The notes beneath the pieces are model-generated. The model was not told the origin of the DNA and ran no database searches. It worked only from the letters and a program-made list of their open reading frames with translations. The translations under genes were made by a program, and so were the position numbers. This document shows, piece after piece, positions 3,001-53,240 of a stretch of DNA of 64,000 nucleotides. Each line of letters starts with the position of its first letter. Positions within the stretch are counted from its first letter, which is position 1. Source of the stretch: an uncultured Candidatus Saccharibacteria bacterium (lineage in GTDB: Bacteria > Patescibacteriota > Minisyncoccia > Minisyncoccales > Staskawiczbacteraceae); NCBI GenBank assembly GCA_964475855.1, contig CAYZAV010000001.1, positions 143,014 through 207,013 on the forward strand, given 5' to 3'.

Positions 3001-3658
3001 TTTTTTCTAGTTCAGATTCCTTTTTTTCACCAGATGAGTAATAATCCAGTGGCTTCGACGACTTGATTGACTCTTCAATTGAAGTCCTTTTTGCTGCTTT
3101 TCTACTCTCAATAATGGCATATAGCCTATCTTGAGCTTTTTGCAACCGGTCTACCTTTTCTTTAAAATGGGAATTATCTAAATTACCCTTTTTATACTGC
3201 CTTCTTAGTTCCGTAATCCTATCTCCATATGCATCTTTTACGATCTTCTTTTTTGCTATCTTGGCCGCTTCAGGTAAACCTAAAATACCCCTTGCCTCTT
3301 TTTCCGATATTAAAACATCTTCTACTGTTTCTTGCACCCCCTTTCCTGTTTCCGATTCAATATCTTCAGTCGCCGGTTTAGGATTTTTTTCTCGCGAAAG
3401 AGTATCGGGCGCCCCCATATTCTGAAGAGTATCCTTTAGTTCGGTAACAGTTCCGGCGTATATATTATCCGCCGGGAGTTCAGAATTTCCTTGTGGAACG
3501 GGCAGTGCCGACTCTAAAGGTGCAACCGTATCAGGTGCTATCATAGCCTTAATCGTATCCCCTAGCTCAGCAGCATTTTTTACAACCAAATTATCTGCTG
3601 GGACTAAAGAATCTTCAGGTTTTTCTGGAATGTTATTTTCTGCTCGTTTTTCAGCCAT
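1..3658 (-). CDS. Large acidic hypothetical protein, N-terminus complete, C-terminus cut by window edge (at least 1219 codons)
   Basis: ATG at 3658-3656. Hand translation of the minus strand reaches position 2 with no stop. It is absent from the ORF track because it has no stop in the window. The + strand ORFs listed at 102-3010 are S/F/L-rich shadows of it. The product is E/K/D-rich with no TM segment or signal peptide seen, and no family was recognised. Confidence 0.8.
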   Translation of the reverse strand, partial: MAEKRAENNIPEKPEDSLVPADNLVVKNAAELGDTIKAMIAPDTVAPLESALPVPQGNSELPADNIYAGTVTELKDTLQNMGAPDTLSREKNPKPATEDIESETGKGVQETVEDVLISEKEARGILGLPEAAKIAKKKIVKDAYGDRITELRRQYKKGNLDNSHFKEKVDRLQKAQDRLYAIIESRKAAKRTSIEESIKSSKPLDYYSSGEKKESELEKMKEISAEEGGYVEVDQTNEAEIVDPKTQELVDKLFDQIIPPDEGVVKGSEVAPNIATAGGEQVATDENIDNELAALRRTQEELEKLPEIAAAREVNAEKEREELERFRRYVEISVIRLEALCTALVEKKNLKPQDVEGLNHDIAVLRAFDVESFDPGFEVGDIGNFEERWEKIYSYWDKKFDFYNQHLEQPEIPKSGEDLTTVKVPAVFGENGDTFKMDKPIAGDLKTTEKGEKKEGDETEELGPEKKNLGEVLKKEKKENKEEWEARINKLLKRVAGRRTYRFSKDAEGNLVQQYVQLRNFASTIKASKLNETELEFGVFDMDGNPVLNKDGNQKIIKQKIGKIEFREWKKGEPTEDEISVPTIAVGSAKFEDSADSVIVRDEVGNFDERIAREQMSTSGELSLEFNKEGVKPIIAPYSQVVKYVDGNGKTAYAKRTGPRPELQKPDGSKPIAPKDPKNGSEVELDTEDGVKKKGETREAAIKAMRDSLLLMNSRIDAIPAEKRVRIHNPKKKGDTIEIDKTYLTPIYDGIVKNLNDFEEGVLIEGFTETATYQWIYRDINSNLNRLIKFFEPGPPEEFTVQEDLDKNPSANQDNPNQSSELSLDSNNPIPSVESGYFDLSLDSDSGSGSKPSELTSGSFDLAGPFDSAESSADSPKINLAGEDQRHVEKKAKAVNDIDNQLELMLIEINKFTDMFGWPDLRTKYSAIERKIAQFKAEKDKLVEGRLWDEINAEFKELNALKNEVKERALASDRQKARRPKPGALEKSPLASERTSNDAKKAAAANVGKNGDDSNEGEEGDDEQEDEELKSKVARWSRFVWENFKNEAFPEGWTLLGKTEGTKKYEQQQQEEAAEQRKWEKLNTEVETDIGNAGSFPALYEILRNRDEDKARIIKGMRGDLKVENIVKKIEYWRGVVRDTAKGRELPDVEEYFEDINNVLKKDVLINKIESLLVNQQKYENLPTDNSPEEPEVALVDGKGDELGSAVEDEDGGSAKEPE

Positions 3659-4420: not shown

Positions 4421-4681
4421 ATGGCAATCACCAAATCAGCGAAAAAAGCTATCCGCCAGAACAAGAGGCGCAGGGCCCACAATGTGGTTTATTTGAATGG
4501 AATAAAAAAGCTTCTCAAACAAGCTAAGGATTTTGTGGTGCAAAAGAAAAATAAAGAGGCAAAAGAACTGTTGCCAAAAGTGTACCAGATTTTAGACAAA
4601 GCAGCTAAAGTGGGAATTATCAAAAAAAATACCGCATCACGTAGGAAATCCAGATTAACCAAGTTAATAGAGCGATCCTAA
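4421..4681 (+). CDS. rpsT: 30S ribosomal protein S20
   Basis: MAITKSAKKAIRQNKRRRAHN... is the typical S20 N-terminus. The track start at 4382 (TTG) overlaps the promoter, so the ATG at 4421 is preferred. Confidence 0.9.
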   Translation: MAITKSAKKAIRQNKRRRAHNVVYLNGIKKLLKQAKDFVVQKKNKEAKELLPKVYQILDKAAKVGIIKKNTASRRKSRLTKLIERS

Positions 4682-4710
4682 TCTACGAATTACATCCGAA
4701 TGATCCGAAT

Positions 4711-4736
4711 AAAAAACCGCCTTCTGGCGGTTTTTT
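4711..4736. terminator. Bidirectional rho-independent terminator
   Basis: AAAAAACCGCC-TTCT-GGCGGTTTTTT, lying inside cassette A. Confidence 0.8.
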
Positions 4737-4744
4737 GATTATCC

Positions 4745-5122
4745 TTAATATGACTGCAGGGCGGGATTTAGCACTCTTTTCGGTTTTAAATACGTGCTCC
4801 TAAAATTGACTATTAATCCTAATTCTAAATTACTTCCCGAAAGATACCTTTGCATTTGGAAATAATCTTCTTTAGTAATAAATTTTTTTGCCTTCACATC
4901 AATGATAATCTTGTCATCAATAAGAAAATCAAACCTATTTCCCTTCACTGGTGCATCTGGAATTTCAAACTCTCTTTTATAGGTAATTTGTTTTTCTTTG
5001 AGCACCAATTCCAAAGCATCCGCATATTGCTTTTCACGCAAAAACCGGCCGTGCTTATTTTGGATATCGAAACAAATCCCTGTTAATTCATATGATAATT
5101 GTGCGTGCAATATTCGGGTCAT
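4745..5122 (-). CDS. GxxExxY-family protein (PD-(D/E)XK nuclease fold)
   Basis: 125 aa. GRFLREKQY, DFLIDD...IDVK and LGLIVNF match the family pattern as I recall it (TIGR04256-like). Confidence 0.7.
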   Translation of the reverse strand: MTRILHAQLSYELTGICFDIQNKHGRFLREKQYADALELVLKEKQITYKREFEIPDAPVKGNRFDFLIDDKIIIDVKAKKFITKEDYFQMQRYLSGSNLELGLIVNFRSTYLKPKRVLNPALQSY

Positions 5123-5149
5123 TCGGATGTAATTCGTAAATTAGGATCG

Positions 5150-6085
5150 CTAGATTTGCGACACCAGCAAATCTAAAGCTGTTTCTAATTCTATTTTGCC
5201 GGTTTTAATATCTGAATCAGTTTGGAATATTTTATGATATATTTTTTTTAATTCCTCAAAGCTGAACTGGTGGCACTGCTCATACGTTTTTTTGACCACA
5301 AACGGGTGTAGCCCGCTTTTTTTGACAATAGAGTCATACATCATCCGTTTCTCAGCCAGCTCTTTAACAATTAATAAATTTTTAAACTGGAAGGCAATCA
5401 TACTTAATAGGTACAACACGTTATCACCTTCGTCCAAATGTTTGCGCAGCAGCACCAGCGCCTGCTTTTTATTTTTGTGCGCCAGGGCGTCAATAGTTTT
5501 AAAAATGTCCAGCGCAATACTTGGCCGTACCATTAATTCCACATCTTCTTTTTTAATGGTTACGCCCTTTTTATAATCCGCCAGTTTTTTGATTTCCTGG
5601 TGCAAGCGCCAGCAATCTGGGCCAGTATAGGCCGTCAGCAAATCCAGTGCATCCAAGTTTATTTTTGCGTTCAAAACCTGCAATTCGCTCTGCGCCCAAA
5701 GTTTCAAGTTTTTAGGATCCAGAGACTTGAATTCCTGGCATTTGGCCATTTTAACAAGCTGTTTGAAAATTTTTAACCGCTGGTCAGGTTCTTCATCTTC
5801 ATAGACAACAGTAATATCTTGTAACTCCTGCAGTGTTTTCACCTCTTCTAAAAAATCTTCCTGGAACTGTTTATTGGCAAATAAATTTTTCAGCACCACC
5901 AGCTTTTTTTCAGCAAACATGCCCACCGCCCGGAAGTGTCCGAAAAACTCCGCAAAGTCCGCCTCAATCGCATCCACCCGCATCAAATTCAGCCCGCTTT
6001 TACGAACATTTTTATACTGCCCCACAATCTCATCCAGTTTTTGCTTCGATCTATAACTATCTTGTCCGAATAAAAAAATTATCAT
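5150..6085 (-). CDS. holA: DNA polymerase III delta subunit
   Basis: 311 aa. The MIIFLFGQDSYRSKQKLDEI... N-terminus and overall length are typical of HolA. Confidence 0.8.
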   Translation of the reverse strand: MIIFLFGQDSYRSKQKLDEIVGQYKNVRKSGLNLMRVDAIEADFAEFFGHFRAVGMFAEKKLVVLKNLFANKQFQEDFLEEVKTLQELQDITVVYEDEEPDQRLKIFKQLVKMAKCQEFKSLDPKNLKLWAQSELQVLNAKINLDALDLLTAYTGPDCWRLHQEIKKLADYKKGVTIKKEDVELMVRPSIALDIFKTIDALAHKNKKQALVLLRKHLDEGDNVLYLLSMIAFQFKNLLIVKELAEKRMMYDSIVKKSGLHPFVVKKTYEQCHQFSFEELKKIYHKIFQTDSDIKTGKIELETALDLLVSQI

Positions 6086-6093
6086 GGGTCGCA

Positions 6094-6530
6094 GTTATAA
6101 AGTTTGTAAAGTTATAAAGTTCATAAAGTCCTGTGCCATAATCTTATAAAGTTTTTATTAAGCCTGAAATCATCCGAGATATTTCCTTAGACAAAGAATT
6201 TATTTTTTCAAATTCTTCTCTTGAAACATAATTTAAGTCTACTGCAGTATATGACATTGATCTTACCTCTGAACAAGAACCTTTGGCAATATACAAAAAT
6301 CTAATAAACTCTTTATTTCCCATTCTTTCGAATCCTTCTGCGATATTATTACCAACACTAACTGTTGCCCTTTTGATTTGGTCACAAAAACTAAAATCTC
6401 TGTTATTTTTAAATAACGCATATATTAGTACTGCCAATTGCCTGCTTTTTTGCCAAGCAACAATATCTTCAAATTTTTCGAATTTCATTTTAGAACTTTA
6501 TAACTTTACAAACTTTATGAACTTTATAAC
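6094..6530. mobile_element. IR-bounded cassette B carrying a four-helix-bundle gene
   Basis: Flanks 6094-6130 and 6493-6530 are built from the same 8-11-nt units (GTTATAAAGTT, TGTAAAGTT, ATAAAGTT, CATAAAGT) in inverted orientation with permuted order. The cassette occupies the whole mutM-holA spacer. Confidence 0.6.
6144..6488 (-). CDS. Four-helix-bundle protein (23S rRNA intervening-sequence protein family)
   Basis: FEDIVAWQKS...NNIAEGFER...KGSCSEV matches the family pattern. Confidence 0.85.
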   Translation of the reverse strand: MKFEKFEDIVAWQKSRQLAVLIYALFKNNRDFSFCDQIKRATVSVGNNIAEGFERMGNKEFIRFLYIAKGSCSEVRSMSYTAVDLNYVSREEFEKINSLSKEISRMISGLIKTL

Positions 6531-7405
6531 TATAGCACCTGACATTTCGGGCAATAGAATGCGCTTCGGGCGGCGATTACTTTGCGCACAATAATCGCTT
6601 TACACCGGGAACAATTCTTGCCTTCCATTTGATATGCTTTTTTATGACCTTCGAAATTGCCCTTATTACCATCAACATCACGGTAATCAGAAAAGCTGTC
6701 TCCACCAAAATCTATGCCAGCGTTGAGTACTTTTTTAATATATTTATAGAGCAACTGTAATTCTTGCCTACTTAAATTTTCTGCCCGCTTTTCAGGGTGG
6801 AGACGCGCCCACCATAGCGCCTCGCTGGCATAAATATTACCAATGCCGGCAATCACAAATGGATCCATTATGACTTGCTTTATCTTTCCGCGTTTTTTGG
6901 AAACAATAGCCGCAAACTTTTCAAACGTGAAATTATTTTCCAGCGGTTCAGGCCCTATTTTCTTAAATTCCGGCGACACCAACAGTTCGTCCGTTTTCCA
7001 TAATTCAACCTTGGCAAATTTGCGCATATCAGAAAGCGCAATCATGTCGCCATTATCCAAAAAGAATATTATGTGCAAAAATCCATTTATCCGTTCGCGC
7101 AACGGGCCTTCGTCAGCCGACACCCATGTTCCATGCTTCATGTTCCATGTTCCATGAAGAAAGTGTCCCGTCATTTTCATATGCACTAACAAAGAATATC
7201 CGTCTGACAATTCAAATATGACATTTTTCGCCCGACGCCAAACGCGGATAATTTTCTTGCCCTTCAATTCTTTTTTAAACTGCGTAAACGGCCGCGGCCG
7301 TTTCACCATCTTTTCCCAATCGCACCACACATCAACAAAGGCCCGGTTAAGGACCTTTGCTTGTAACCCATTGACGGTGGTTTGTACTTCAGGTAGTTCC
7401 GGCAT
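6530..7405 (-). CDS. mutM: Formamidopyrimidine-DNA glycosylase
   Basis: MPELPEV N-terminus (catalytic Pro2) and a C-terminal zinc finger CSRC...CPKC. The track start at 7513 adds 36 spurious residues. Confidence 0.9.
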   Translation of the reverse strand: MPELPEVQTTVNGLQAKVLNRAFVDVWCDWEKMVKRPRPFTQFKKELKGKKIIRVWRRAKNVIFELSDGYSLLVHMKMTGHFLHGTWNMKHGTWVSADEGPLRERINGFLHIIFFLDNGDMIALSDMRKFAKVELWKTDELLVSPEFKKIGPEPLENNFTFEKFAAIVSKKRGKIKQVIMDPFVIAGIGNIYASEALWWARLHPEKRAENLSRQELQLLYKYIKKVLNAGIDFGGDSFSDYRDVDGNKGNFEGHKKAYQMEGKNCSRCKAIIVRKVIAARSAFYCPKCQVL

Positions 7406-8024
7406 CTTCCCTTGGCTCGCCCAAGTTTTCAGTAGGGGCGGTTTCCACGCTTTTCGGCTTTCGTTTGCGCTCCACCTTTTTCTCCAACTGTTCCCGAAGC
7501 TCCACAAGTTCACCCCTCAACCCCGCCGTTTCCGTGTCGCGGTTTTTTGCATCCTGTTGGAATTTCTCCACACTTAAGGCTAGGCGCTCAAGCTCCATGG
7601 TCCTGTTTTTGATTTTTTGCTCTAGAGCTTCGATAGTTTCCTCCAAGGCCCCGGTCCTTGCCTTTACTTTCATATCAACCGACCGCTCCAGGGTCTGGGT
7701 TTCGTTTTTGCTTTCTTCAAATTCTTCAGCAATTTTGTTGAACACCCTGGCCAATTCCCCAATCTCATCCTTGCTTTCAGAATAAAACCGGCTTTTTAAA
7801 TCCCCTTTACTTAAACCATCGGCACGCTGCAACAACTTCTTGATCGGCACGGCAAAGTTTTGGCCCGTGGCAAATCCGAATAAAAAAATGTACACAATTA
7901 ACAAGCCAAGAATAATATAAAAATTAATATTGAGCGTTTCATAATTTAAGGCGATAAACGCCACGATAATGAAAAGCCCCGCAATGATAATAGGATACGC
8001 AATTTTAAAAGATAGCTTAGGCAT
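7389..8024 (-). CDS. Membrane protein with two TM segments, a HAMP domain and a coiled coil, no output domain
   Basis: Two N-terminal hydrophobic segments, a HAMP-like PIKKLLQRADGLSKGDL...DEIGELARVFNKIAEE, then an E/K-rich coil. Its 3' end overlaps the mutM start by 17 nt. Confidence 0.6.
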   Translation of the reverse strand: MPKLSFKIAYPIIIAGLFIIVAFIALNYETLNINFYIILGLLIVYIFLFGFATGQNFAVPIKKLLQRADGLSKGDLKSRFYSESKDEIGELARVFNKIAEEFEESKNETQTLERSVDMKVKARTGALEETIEALEQKIKNRTMELERLALSVEKFQQDAKNRDTETAGLRGELVELREQLEKKVERKRKPKSVETAPTENLGEPREDAGTT

Positions 8025-12449: not shown

Positions 12450-12587
12450 AAAAACAGCTCGGGAGTTGGAGGAGCATGCTATCTGGGATAGCAGTAAAGG
12501 TTTTCCTGAGGAATAGTTGAGCCGGAGCAAAACTATCCATAAACTAAAGAAAACCCATATAAGACCTCCAACTCCTGAGCTGTTTTT
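12450..12587 (+). other. 138-nt structured element closed by a 23-bp inverted repeat
   Basis: 12450-12472 equals the reverse complement of 12565-12587 at 22/23 positions. Inner hairpins lie at 12477-12493 and 12510-12538. The element ends in TTTTT. Confidence 0.5.
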
Positions 12588-26561: not shown

Positions 26562-26705
26562 TCAAGGAAGTATTCGCAATACATAATCCTCCGTTAACTC
26601 CCCTGGGAGGATTATGTATTGCGAATACTTCCGACCTATCTTATGCCGTTCTTGCCAAACATGAAGATCAGTAAATTTTGTAATTTTTCCAGTTGCAATA
26701 TTCAT
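26562..26705 (-). pseudogene. Four-helix-bundle protein remnant (47 codons)
   Basis: MNIATGKITKFTDLHVWQERHK... matches the family N-terminus (compare FEDIVAWQKS at 6144..6488), then loses similarity and stops. Confidence 0.5.
26566..26632. repeat. Perfect 27-bp inverted repeat with a 13-nt loop
   Basis: GGAAGTATTCGCAATACATAATCCTCC at 26566-26592 is the reverse complement of 26606-26632. Confidence 0.85.
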
Positions 26706-29231: not shown

Positions 29232-29236
29232 ATGTT

Positions 29237-29714
29237 AATTTGAAATTTACAATTTGAAATTTGAATTCAATTTGAAATGGTTAAATATTAAATTTAAAAA
29301 TTAGTTTTTTGTTGAGTAAGCAATTTTACCGAATATTAGTATGAATTCTTTTGACTCTTGCCAGAGATTTCTGCAGTCTTCCTTTATTTTACCATTATCT
29401 ATAGATTCTCCTAGTAACTCCAACCAATACAGAGTTTCCTTGGATTCTTTCTTGCAGATAAATATTTTATTCTGAAAGTCTTTTCTGCTTGATGCGCCAT
29501 TTGCTTCCCGGTAATTCGCCCCGATACTGGTGCCTGAACGTATTAACTGATTGATTAAAGGTATGGTAGTGATGCTTTTTGGACATAGGTTGCAAAAAGT
29601 AATTAACTTGCGGGAAAAATCCAAGGTTCTTTTTTCTAAGTCGTAAGCTTTTTCAAATTCAGCCATTTGCTTTTTTCAAATTGAATTCAAATTTCAAATT
29701 GTAAATTTCAAATT
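29237..29714. mobile_element. IR-bounded cassette C: perfect 41-bp arms around a four-helix-bundle gene
   Basis: 29237-29277 is the exact reverse complement of 29674-29714. It sits between the start of 28560..29231 and the stop of 29714..30121. Confidence 0.85.
29301..29666 (-). CDS. Four-helix-bundle protein (23S rRNA intervening-sequence protein family)
   Basis: LIRSGTSIGANYREA...KESKETLYWLELL. Confidence 0.8.
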   Translation of the reverse strand: MAEFEKAYDLEKRTLDFSRKLITFCNLCPKSITTIPLINQLIRSGTSIGANYREANGASSRKDFQNKIFICKKESKETLYWLELLGESIDNGKIKEDCRNLWQESKEFILIFGKIAYSTKN

Positions 29715-30121
29715 TACTTGCGTGTCTCTACCTTAGTTTTAACATCTTTTAGCGCACTGTGCTGCATTTTCATGGACGTTTTGGCTGTTTCTAGTACGGC
29801 AATCGGTTCGGGTTTTTTATGGACTTTAAACGGATAGGGCACTTCTTTCTTTTTCCAGGTATAGGTTTTTGACTTGGTGGCAAACCCGATAAAATTCATC
29901 AAGACGGTAGTAACCGACATGTTGTTGAGTTTTATAAACGCCACTACAAACGTTATTAGCGCGGTAAACCCGGCAAGGACAATGGCAAACAGCAGGCGCA
30001 GGAGCAGGAAATATCCAAGGCACAAAAATCCGCCAATAACCACCATCCAAAATTGCTTGAATGTCAAAAAAGCAATAATTTTCCCCTCTTCTTCTATAAA
30101 TTGTGGTGTTGGATACTGCAT
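29714..30121 (-). CDS. PrgI-family (VirB3-like) membrane protein
   Basis: MQYPTPQFIEEEGKIIAFLTFKQF followed by two TM helices, the typical PrgI layout. Confidence 0.6.
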   Translation of the reverse strand: MQYPTPQFIEEEGKIIAFLTFKQFWMVVIGGFLCLGYFLLLRLLFAIVLAGFTALITFVVAFIKLNNMSVTTVLMNFIGFATKSKTYTWKKKEVPYPFKVHKKPEPIAVLETAKTSMKMQHSALKDVKTKVETRK

Positions 30122-53138: not shown

Positions 53139-53240
53139 ATAGTTTATAGTTATTAGTTCATAGTTTTAGTTAACTAGTTACTAGTTAGCAAAACTAATGA
53201 CTAAAAAACCAAAACTAATAACTAAAAACTAAAGACTAAT
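53139..53240. repeat. Oligo-repeat hairpin, TAGTT family, abutting the nusA ATG
   Basis: The reverse complement of the right half contains TAGTTTTTAGTTATTAGTTTTGGTTTT, near-identical to 41335-41367. Confidence 0.55.

Follow-up and report, generated by a model that had tools for sequence, protein, structure and literature searches.

A four-helix-bundle gene bracketed by inverted arrays of short units in the mutM-holA operon of a patescibacterial genome, and its relatives in other bacteria

The stretch of DNA analyzed here is 64,000 nucleotides (nt) long (hereafter the window) and comes from an uncultured Candidatus Saccharibacteria bacterium (contig CAYZAV010000001.1, positions 143,014 to 207,013). 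Between mutM (also fpg, encoding formamidopyrimidine-DNA glycosylase) and holA (encoding the delta subunit of DNA polymerase III) it carries a small gene of the four-helix-bundle family, the family named after the open reading frames (ORFs) of intervening sequences (IVSs) in 23S rRNA. Both flanks of this gene are arrays of short tandem units, built on a core AAAGTT upstream and on its complement AACTTT downstream, so that the gene stands between two inverted arms; we refer to gene and arms together as cassette B. The same arrangement recurs around homologous genes in many bacterial phyla, and in the loci sampled the core of the units tracks the protein subfamily and is conserved from phylum to phylum while the bases between the cores turn over. 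In this report we describe cassette B and its site of insertion, follow the arms through two subfamilies of the protein family and through more distant plasmid-borne members, and weigh the readings of what the arrays may do.

The cassette B gene and its arms

A single ORF, on the minus strand and encoding 114 aa plus stop, is present in the segment 6093-6532 between the two host genes (Table 1). Profile searches place its product clearly in the 23S_rRNA_IVP/TIGR02436 family: it matches PF05635 (23S_rRNA_IVP) with an E value of 8.7e-35 and 119.6 bits against a cut-off of 33.8, over model positions 1-106 of 106, and NCBIfam TIGR02436 ("four helix bundle protein") with an E value of 5.7e-34 and 116.6 bits against a cut-off of 24. 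These matches bear out the initial annotation of this DNA, which had read a four-helix-bundle gene filling the mutM-holA spacer. The family's helix motif RxxxSxxxNxxE (PMC3936711) is present as R40, S44, N48 and E51 within QIKRATVSVGNNIAEG, and among 34 homologs S44, N48 and E51 are invariant and R40 is nearly so. The protein is related to the four-helix-bundle structures 2GSC (E 1e-11) and 2RLD (E 1e-10), each deposited with five chains, and probably assembles as a pentamer; with a predicted isoelectric point of 9.2 it is mildly basic. Profile searches against Pfam and NCBIfam found 23S_rRNA_IVP as the only domain in cassette B and no transposase or recombinase domain, the PADLOC defense-system families matched none of the three cassette proteins of the window (A, B and C, see below), and Rfam gave no match to cassette B or its arms (segment 5950-6700) and no rRNA match in the 64-kb window. 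Two other assemblies of the source strain are identical to the window over 6.3 kb and show no variation in unit number there.

Each flank of the gene consists of four tandem units of 8-9 nt. Read in the sense of the gene, the 5' side runs from mutM as ...CAG GTG CTA TAG, TT, ATAAAGTT CATAAAGTT TGTAAAGTT ATAAAGTT, CTAAA, ATG, and the 3' side runs as AAA ACT TTA TAA, GATTATGGCACAG, GACTTTATG AACTTTAT AACTTTACA AACTTTATAACT, GCGACCC and the ATG of holA; on the plus strand the downstream arm reads AGTT ATAAAGTT TGTAAAGTT ATAAAGTT CATAAAGTC. The upstream arm begins with the last two bases (AG) of the TAG stop of mutM, an overlap of 2 nt that agrees with the earlier placement of this flank at the stop codon, and about 5 nt separate its end from the ATG of the cassette-B gene. 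The downstream arm leaves a gap of 7 nt to the holA start codon.

The initial annotation had described the arms as the same units in permuted order, able to pair only with bulges. The unit strings and their differing order in the two inverted arms are as described, and the end-to-end register indeed gives no more than 78% complementarity over 40 nt. All units have their core in common, however, and the arms can therefore pair well when shifted by one unit: 6097-6127 then pairs with 6488-6518 at 29 of 31 contiguous positions (94%), and we reject the permuted order as a meaningful feature on the strength of this register shift. The minimum-free-energy fold of the sense RNA of cassette B reaches -102.1 kcal/mol against -83.0 +/- 5.2 for shuffled sequences (z -3.7), with nearly all of both arms paired, small bulges and the whole ORF closed in the stem; the opposite strand folds similarly (z -4.8). 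The unit strings themselves are concentrated at the cassette. GTTATAAAGTT and TGTAAAGTT have no copies elsewhere in the window, six of the ten ATAAAGTT sites lie inside the 440-nt cassette-B segment, and the other four are close to the number expected by chance across the whole window, about 5.

The genes mutM, cassette B and holA are co-directional, in a neighborhood that also holds genes for a HAMP-domain protein and a 5'-3' exonuclease, a GxxExxY gene and rpsT. On the gene strand, the interior of cassette B has no terminator and no convincing promoter, and the simplest reading is that the cassette lacks a promoter of its own and is co-transcribed with the operon.

Gene order in relatives gives good support to cassette B being an insertion into the mutM-holA junction (Table 1; L numbers denote comparison loci). 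The holA matches suggest that the organism is a Staskawiczbacteria-like patescibacterium. The junction is empty in L084, where the two host genes overlap, and an orthologous four-helix-bundle cassette occupies it in L003 and L004; the arms of these two differ from those of the window in unit make-up and keep both the AAAGTT core and their mutual complementarity. Other relatives carry unrelated ORFs at the same place, and inverted repeats were looked for around these occupants in L083, L085 and L086 and none were found. As the occupants differ among relatives, the mutM-holA junction is, on this comparison, a variable spot or accessory-gene hot spot, with cassette B as one of its alternative occupants. 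The holA-rpsT junction, the site of cassette A in the window, stands empty in both L085 and L086. In L003 a gene-less AAAGTT/AACTT hairpin (4635-4695) lies at the holA-rpsT junction.

Unit cores across the protein family

Two subfamilies were sampled. Subfamily B comprises 80 loci from species-representative genomes whose proteins are 53-77% identical to the cassette-B protein, and it reaches across Patescibacteria, Bacteroidota, Gammaproteobacteria, Desulfobacterota, Leptospirales, Omnitrophota, Bdellovibrionales, Firmicutes and others. Subfamily C comprises 80 metagenome loci whose proteins are 50-74% identical to that of cassette C, a second four-helix-bundle cassette of the window. Arms were sought in the 130 nt upstream and downstream by simple local alignment against shuffles, a shuffling that also destroys the cores; the comparison loci are mostly metagenome-assembled, and neighboring genes were called by ORF heuristics.

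Significant inverted arms flank the gene in 57 of the 73 subfamily-B loci with enough flanking sequence, and nearly all of them are tandem units on an AAAGT core. At positions -40 to -20 from the start codon AAAGT occurs 1.24 times per 20 nt against a background of 0.044, and just after the stop ACTTT occurs 1.04 times per 20 nt against 0.036; the opposite orientations of the core are at background, and the enrichment of AAAGT, about 20-fold, is orientation-specific. An arm has 4-5 units and measures 32-45 bp, with a median of 5 cores spaced 7, 8 or 9 nt apart (93, 75 and 122 cases, respectively). The possibility that the unit strings are common AT-rich low-complexity sequence with no association to four-helix-bundle genes, which had been raised with the first description, does not agree with these densities. 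We reject chance or low complexity as the source of the arms, given that the rest of the window has no copies of the unit strings, or no more than chance would give, and that beside homologs they are enriched 20-28-fold, in one orientation.

In subfamily C, inverted arms are present in 56 of 66 loci; here the units are 8 nt long, of the form AATTTnnA, and the array extends into the first codons of the ORF. In the upstream arms the specificity of the two cores is reciprocal: per 60 nt, subfamily B has 2.73 AAAGT (background 0.13) and 0.12 AATTT (background 0.22), whereas subfamily C has 3.95 AATTT (background 0.29) and 0.10 AAAGT (background 0.12). Other four-helix-bundle paralogs met by chance in these loci have the cores TGGAAT, CGTGAAA, ATCCTTT and ATTTTGA. 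GxxExxY genes, of an unrelated fold, likewise have a unit each of their own in all three cases seen (CCGAAT, CGCGGAA and CGCTGA).

Finished plasmids of cultured bacteria extend the pattern to distant members of the family (33-45% identity), of which eight of the ten examined are flanked by inverted heptamer arrays with locus-specific cores. The core is AAGGTT in a Riemerella plasmid, GGGAAAA, GGGAACA or GGAGTCA in Nostoc plasmids, GGGAAAA in a Geminocystis plasmid, GGGTGTA in a Calothrix plasmid and ACAGGTG in Anabaena sp. 90 pANA02 (L171), where the gene lies between cas6 and cas4, with cas1d after cas4. Of the other two plasmid genes, one has a downstream array only, beside a transposase gene, and one (L174, see below) has direct arrays on both sides. 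Core similarity roughly follows protein similarity: GGAGTCA is common to plasmid proteins that are 98% identical and GGGAA(C/A)A to those that are 72% identical, and AAGGTT belongs to the one nearest to the protein of cassette B (48%).

Some loci are of interest in their own right. In L006 (80-3333) a GxxExxY cassette and a B-type cassette are clustered within 3.3 kb together with a second four-helix-bundle gene, whose units are TGGAAT, and in L039 (1996-2740) two B-type genes stand in tandem with an ACTTT array after each. Two subfamily-B loci, L077 and L057, have divergent units (...CCCCAGT...; AGTACGCA, four times) in which an AAGT or CAGT core is kept. The CCCCAGT unit, from a Moraniibacteriota genome, is presumably identical to a classical heptamer of the short tandemly repeated repetitive (STRR) DNA of cyanobacteria. 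Furthermore, the subfamily-B loci contain 16 gene-less hairpins of AAGT/ACTT arrays whose unit flavor is that of the resident cassette; the hairpin at the holA-rpsT junction of L003 is one of them.

Cassettes of both subfamilies favor operon positions. Both neighbors are co-directional with the gene in 58 of 66 subfamily-B loci (expected fraction 0.70, p 6e-4) and in 32 of 35 subfamily-C loci (expected fraction 0.60, p 4e-5), and the arms sit tightly between the neighbors, the first core lying about 0 nt from the upstream stop and the next start coming, at the median, 13 nt (B) or 20 nt (C) after the last core. A B-type cassette in L037 (2883-3469) lies between two tRNA genes (2883-2957 and 3398-3469), with arms that leave about 10 nt to the first and about 9 nt to the second. 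An rRNA context was sought in 20 homologous loci and found in none, and a search of 2.9 million viral contigs returned one distant match for the cassette-B protein and none for GxxExxY. Four-helix-bundle genes have been noted previously inside cas operons (PMC3936711) and inside rRNA insertions of the candidate phyla radiation (CPR) (PMC11270868).

The window itself holds two further cassettes (Table 1). Cassette A carries a GxxExxY gene and lies on the other side of holA, so that, as first described, there are two insertions within 2 kb of the mutM-holA operon. Its units are of the CCGAAT type, one of them within the first codons of the gene (ATGACCCGAATA), its arms reach into the stop codons of rpsT and of holA, and a bidirectional intrinsic terminator separates the ORF from the downstream arm. 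Cassette C has arms of AATTTGAA-type 8-nt units; on one side they overlap the upstream gene's stop, and on the other they leave 2 nt to the next gene's ATG. Elsewhere in the window, immediately upstream of a nusA-like start (about 53241), TAGTT/AACTA units make up a gene-less hairpin that looks like solo cassette arms with yet another core. There are also a perfect 27-nt inverted repeat that is not built of short units and a 23-nt inverted repeat of 96% complementarity.

Table 1. Features of the window and mutM-holA junctions of related genomes (junction coordinates are those of the comparison loci)
Feature	Location	Strand	Remarks
mutM/fpg, upstream host gene	6530..7408	-	stop 6530-6532, at stem base
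Cassette B, upstream (5', gene-sense) arm	6492..6531	-	AGTT-ATAAAGTT-CATAAAGTT-TGTAAAGTT-ATAAAGTT-C; four AAAGTT cores
Cassette B, ORF	6144..6488	-	four-helix-bundle gene
Cassette B, fifth ACTTT unit inside ORF 3' end	6145..6153	-	codons K-T-L-stop = AAAACTTTATAA
Cassette B, downstream (3', gene-sense) arm	6093..6132	-	GGACTTTATG-AACTTTAT-AACTTTACA-AACTTTATAACT; four ACTTT cores
holA, downstream host gene	5150..6085	-	start 6083-6085
Cassette A	4666..5156	-	GxxExxY/PDDEXK_3 gene 4745-5122; arms 4666-4711 and 5111-5156 (46 nt, 91%)
Cassette A, bidirectional intrinsic terminator	4710..4737
Cassette C	29234..29717	-	four-helix-bundle gene 29301-29666, 121 aa, TIGR02436 E 9e-20, 25% identical to B; arms 44 nt, 98% complementary
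Upstream gene of cassette C	29714..30121
Next gene after cassette C	28560..29231
Gene-less hairpin	53140..53231		40-nt arms, 12-nt loop
Inverted repeat, 27 nt	26566..26632		13-nt loop (GGAAGTATTCGCAATACATAATCCTCC)
Inverted repeat, 23 nt	12450..12587		92 nt between arms (AAAAACAGCTCGGGAGTTGGAGG)
Junction in L084			holA 73% identical; empty; mutM stop and holA start overlap as ATGA (...AAATTGAAATGATTATT...)
Junction in L003 (Staskawiczbacteria-like)			holA 66%; orthologous cassette, protein 77% identical
Junction in L004 (Staskawiczbacteria-like)			holA 65%; orthologous cassette, protein 68% identical
Junction in L083	2950..3465		holA 80%; unrelated 171-aa ORF, opposite strand, no inverted repeats
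Junction in L085	2956..3453		holA 73%; unrelated 165-aa ORF with PaaX_M match, no inverted repeats
Junction in L086 and L087	2814..3437 (L086)		holA 68%; unrelated 207-aa ORF, no family, no inverted repeats

A proposed role in the operon transcript and its alternatives

That cassette B is a promoterless IVS-like cassette, inserted exactly at the mutM-holA junction, is well supported. The reading that we favor, and to which we give an even chance, is that its arms pair in the operon transcript and are processed by RNase III, and that its encoded protein likely reads the core. We prefer pairing in the transcript because the anatomy of cassette B is the same as that of an rRNA IVS. The cassette would be transcribed as part of the mutM-holA operon, and its 5' array, (AAAGUU)n, would pair with its 3' array, (AACUUU)n, into an AU-rich stem of 31-40 bp. 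The ORF would then lie in the loop, and at the foot of the stem about 7 nt would separate the mutM stop from the holA start. RNase III needs roughly two helical turns, a length that arms of 32-45 bp at least reach, and the stem would be a likely substrate of this enzyme, as in the 23S rRNA IVSs of Coxiella and Leptospira. Cleavage would set the cassette mRNA free with the host cistrons still functional, which would make the insertion cheap for the host, and a junction whose empty state is translationally coupled could in this way tolerate an insertion.

The arrays may also be recognized sequence-specifically by the encoded protein, a recognition that could serve RNA folding and processing, autoregulation or spread. 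We regard recognition by a protein as probable because the core is subfamily-specific and is conserved across phyla while the spacers turn over. A conserved core is superfluous for a mere stem, which suggests a sequence-specific reader that travels with the cassette. The cassette-encoded protein suggests itself as the obvious candidate, being mildly basic and homologous both to pentameric proteins and to the RNA-associated protein Avd.

A number of observations weigh against this reading. Mismatches in the arms show no sense-strand excess of G-U pairs (sense versus antisense, 31 versus 37 in B and 42 versus 47 in C), so that selection on a sense-strand RNA helix is not visible, and we set G-U wobble asymmetry aside as a discriminator between RNA and DNA, since it is uninformative or negative. 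Pairing scores of arms with their own partners and across loci are only moderately apart (38.4 versus 28.1 and 44.9 versus 37.2), and the complementarity of the arms is partly trivial, since much of it derives from the shared cores. In L032 and in cassette A of the window the ORF is followed, before the downstream arm, by an intrinsic terminator, and a transcript terminated there would therefore form no stem. In L174 (Pseudanabaena galeata pPg_01), where the gene lies between cas6 and cas4, the long arrays (AAAAGCT/AAAAGCC) are direct and not inverted. That the same architecture surrounds two unrelated folds, four-helix bundle and PD-(D/E)XK, weakens the idea that the protein reads the repeats, and as the cores of subfamily B stand 7, 8 or 9 nt apart they offer no fixed binding geometry. 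Anatomy, insertion, orientation and the association throughout the family are shown; pairing of the arms in vivo, cleavage by RNase III and reading of the repeats by the protein are inferred.

A broader proposal, which is possible but which we hold as doubtful, is that the "IVS proteins" of the four-helix-bundle and GxxExxY types are the cargo of widespread, unrecognized cassettes whose ends are inverted unit arrays read by the encoded protein. On this proposal the pentameric ring of a four-helix-bundle protein could engage about 4-5 repeats, as TRAP reads spaced triplets.

A rather unlikely alternative to pairing and processing in the transcript is that cassette B is a mobile element acting at the level of DNA. 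The arrays would then be multi-site terminal inverted repeats, bound by the cassette's own protein or by a trans-acting partner for excision, insertion or homing, and RNA pairing would be incidental. The observations that weigh against pairing in the transcript keep this model in play. A double-stranded motif that is mirrored at both ends and has a core conserved across phyla suits such an element, as does the absence of a G-U strand bias. The patchy presence of the cassette at an orthologous site with a known empty state, the occurrence of the family in many phyla at 55-68% protein identity, the terminators inside the arms of some cassettes and the membership of GxxExxY in a nuclease superfamily point the same way, and the 16 gene-less hairpins with the units of the resident cassette resemble non-autonomous miniature inverted-repeat transposable elements (MITEs). 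However, no target-site duplication was found in 35 B and 50 C loci, where the longest string shared outside the arms has a mean length of 3.29 and 3.76 within loci, compared with 3.50 and 3.67 between loci. Cassette B has no transposase or recombinase domain of its own, although a trans-acting enzyme is still conceivable, the four-helix-bundle family is without a known catalytic motif, and cores spaced 7-9 nt apart are out of helical phase. The enrichment of co-directional operon positions close to stops and starts fits dependence on host transcription, and the near absence of the family from the viral contigs leaves phages as no visible vector. The cassettes may be mobile.

We consider it improbable that the arrays are a neutral by-product of an ordinary accessory gene, generated and kept uniform by replication slippage and by the correction of imperfect palindromes through template switching, with a core shared by descent and perhaps seeded by codons of the ORF, and with nothing that reads the repeats. 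Unit number and spacer bases do turn over fast, even among orthologous cassettes (window versus L003 and L004), units are more alike within a locus than between loci, the G-U bias is absent, and the ORF of cassette B ends in codons that are themselves a unit (AAAACTTTATAA) just as the array of subfamily C enters the first codons. Against a neutral origin, the 5-nt core is kept across phyla at 53-77% protein identity while the spacers vary, in one orientation and with about 20-fold enrichment, and the same architecture surrounds two unrelated folds from Patescibacteria (CPR) to cyanobacteria. We also reject the ORF-terminal codons as seed and keeper of the core: ACTTT is found in the last 20 nt of only about 30% of subfamily-B genes, and ACTTT arrays are still present in L014, L048 and L032, which have other C-terminal codons, so that such a seed cannot maintain the core. 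Least probable by far is that cassette B encodes an Avd-type accessory protein of a diversity-generating retroelement (DGR) of which the repeats are part, since the homology of PF05635 to Avd (PMC10053308) and a weak PHROG match of the cassette-B protein to "Avd protein of DGR" (E 7e-4) stand against the absence of a reverse transcriptase and of a template/variable repeat pair near cassette B and, likewise, in the operon-spacer contexts of its homologs.

Relation to known systems and implications

The closest known counterparts are the IVSs of Coxiella and Leptospira 23S rRNA, in which an S23p ORF lies inside a stem of complementary termini, and the 28-bp terminal stem of the Coxiella IVS is cut by RNase III in vitro (PMC4990558). 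Cassette B is like them in having a PF05635-family ORF in the loop of a long stem, in sense orientation within the host transcript. Unlike them, it sits in a protein-coding operon and not within a 23S or 16S rRNA helix, and its arms are short-unit arrays with a subfamily-specific core; for rRNA IVSs this comparison is with the accessible published descriptions, which report no such arrays.

The second counterpart is the STRR sequences, 7-bp tandem repeats of cyanobacteria with the capacity to fold into hairpins, as in the spacer between hupS and hupL, and with proposed roles in transcript stability or translational coupling (PMC2670836). The heptamer arrays at the Nostoc, Anabaena, Calothrix and Geminocystis plasmid genes look like STRR repeats, known since 1990. 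Cassette B shares with STRR sequences the tandem short units and the two inverted, potentially hairpin-forming arrays in an operon spacer, and the gene-less AAAGT hairpins beside B-type cassettes add to the likeness. Unlike STRR sequences, which are described without a gene, cassette B brackets one, its units are 8-9 nt long rather than 7, and its host is a Patescibacterium and not a cyanobacterium.

Other comparisons are more distant. Avd acts together with structured RNA segments that flank the template of a DGR. It is a homologous pentameric four-helix-bundle protein (PMC10053308), but its similarity to the cassette-B protein is weak and the other parts of a DGR are missing from the vicinity. 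Correia elements of Neisseria exemplify MITEs that are co-transcribed with genes; like the arms of cassette B, the terminal inverted repeats of such elements fold in mRNA as possible RNase III targets, and gene-less intergenic copies occur in both, whereas cassette B is without a target-site duplication, has arms that are unit arrays and contains a conserved protein gene. Homing-endonuclease genes in introns and inteins and the cassettes of integrons resemble cassette B as small promoterless genes, selfish or accessory, that rely on host transcription in a vehicle harmless to the host. Cassette B differs from the former in having no intron or intein chemistry, the proposed neutralizing device being an RNA stem processed by a host RNase, and from the latter in its two symmetric arrays flanking the ORF, its housekeeping neighbors and the lack of an attC site and integrase (no dedicated attC model was run). 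Cassette B is not a DGR, an integron cassette, a classical MITE or insertion sequence, or a known defense system.

Within the searchable full-text literature, which does not extend to subscription-only articles and so leaves room for a prior description, we found no inverted short-unit arrays flanking these genes, no report of subfamily-specific cores and no link of STRR sequences to IVS-protein or four-helix-bundle genes. Within a large class cassette B itself is ordinary, and it is the defining architecture of this class that appears to be new.

Two puzzles of about 30 years' standing are touched by this architecture: the role and spread of the ORFs of rRNA IVSs, and the nature of the STRR hairpins in cyanobacterial operon spacers. 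The function and origin of the IVS and its ORF were described as unclear in 2016 (PMC4990558), and the domain as functionally uncharacterized in 2024 (PMC11270868). Cassette B and about 150 relatives tie the two puzzles together, as IVS-type genes outside rRNA that are bracketed by inverted arrays of 7-9-nt units, and the architecture explains the presence of IVS-type genes inside cas operons, tRNA clusters and housekeeping operons. Annotators gain a signature for such insertions and for their gene-less remnants, and a "hypothetical protein" becomes part of a testable hypothesis of cognate protein-repeat pairs: if cognate recognition is true, the protein of cassette B would prefer AAAGUU/AAAGTT arrays and that of cassette C AAUUUGAA arrays. 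Should the broader proposal of cassettes with IVS-protein cargo hold, it would reveal a new system of protein-repeat recognition that directs RNA maturation or the spread of cassettes, and the STRR-type hairpins that cyanobacteria and other bacteria carry without a gene would be its non-autonomous derivatives.

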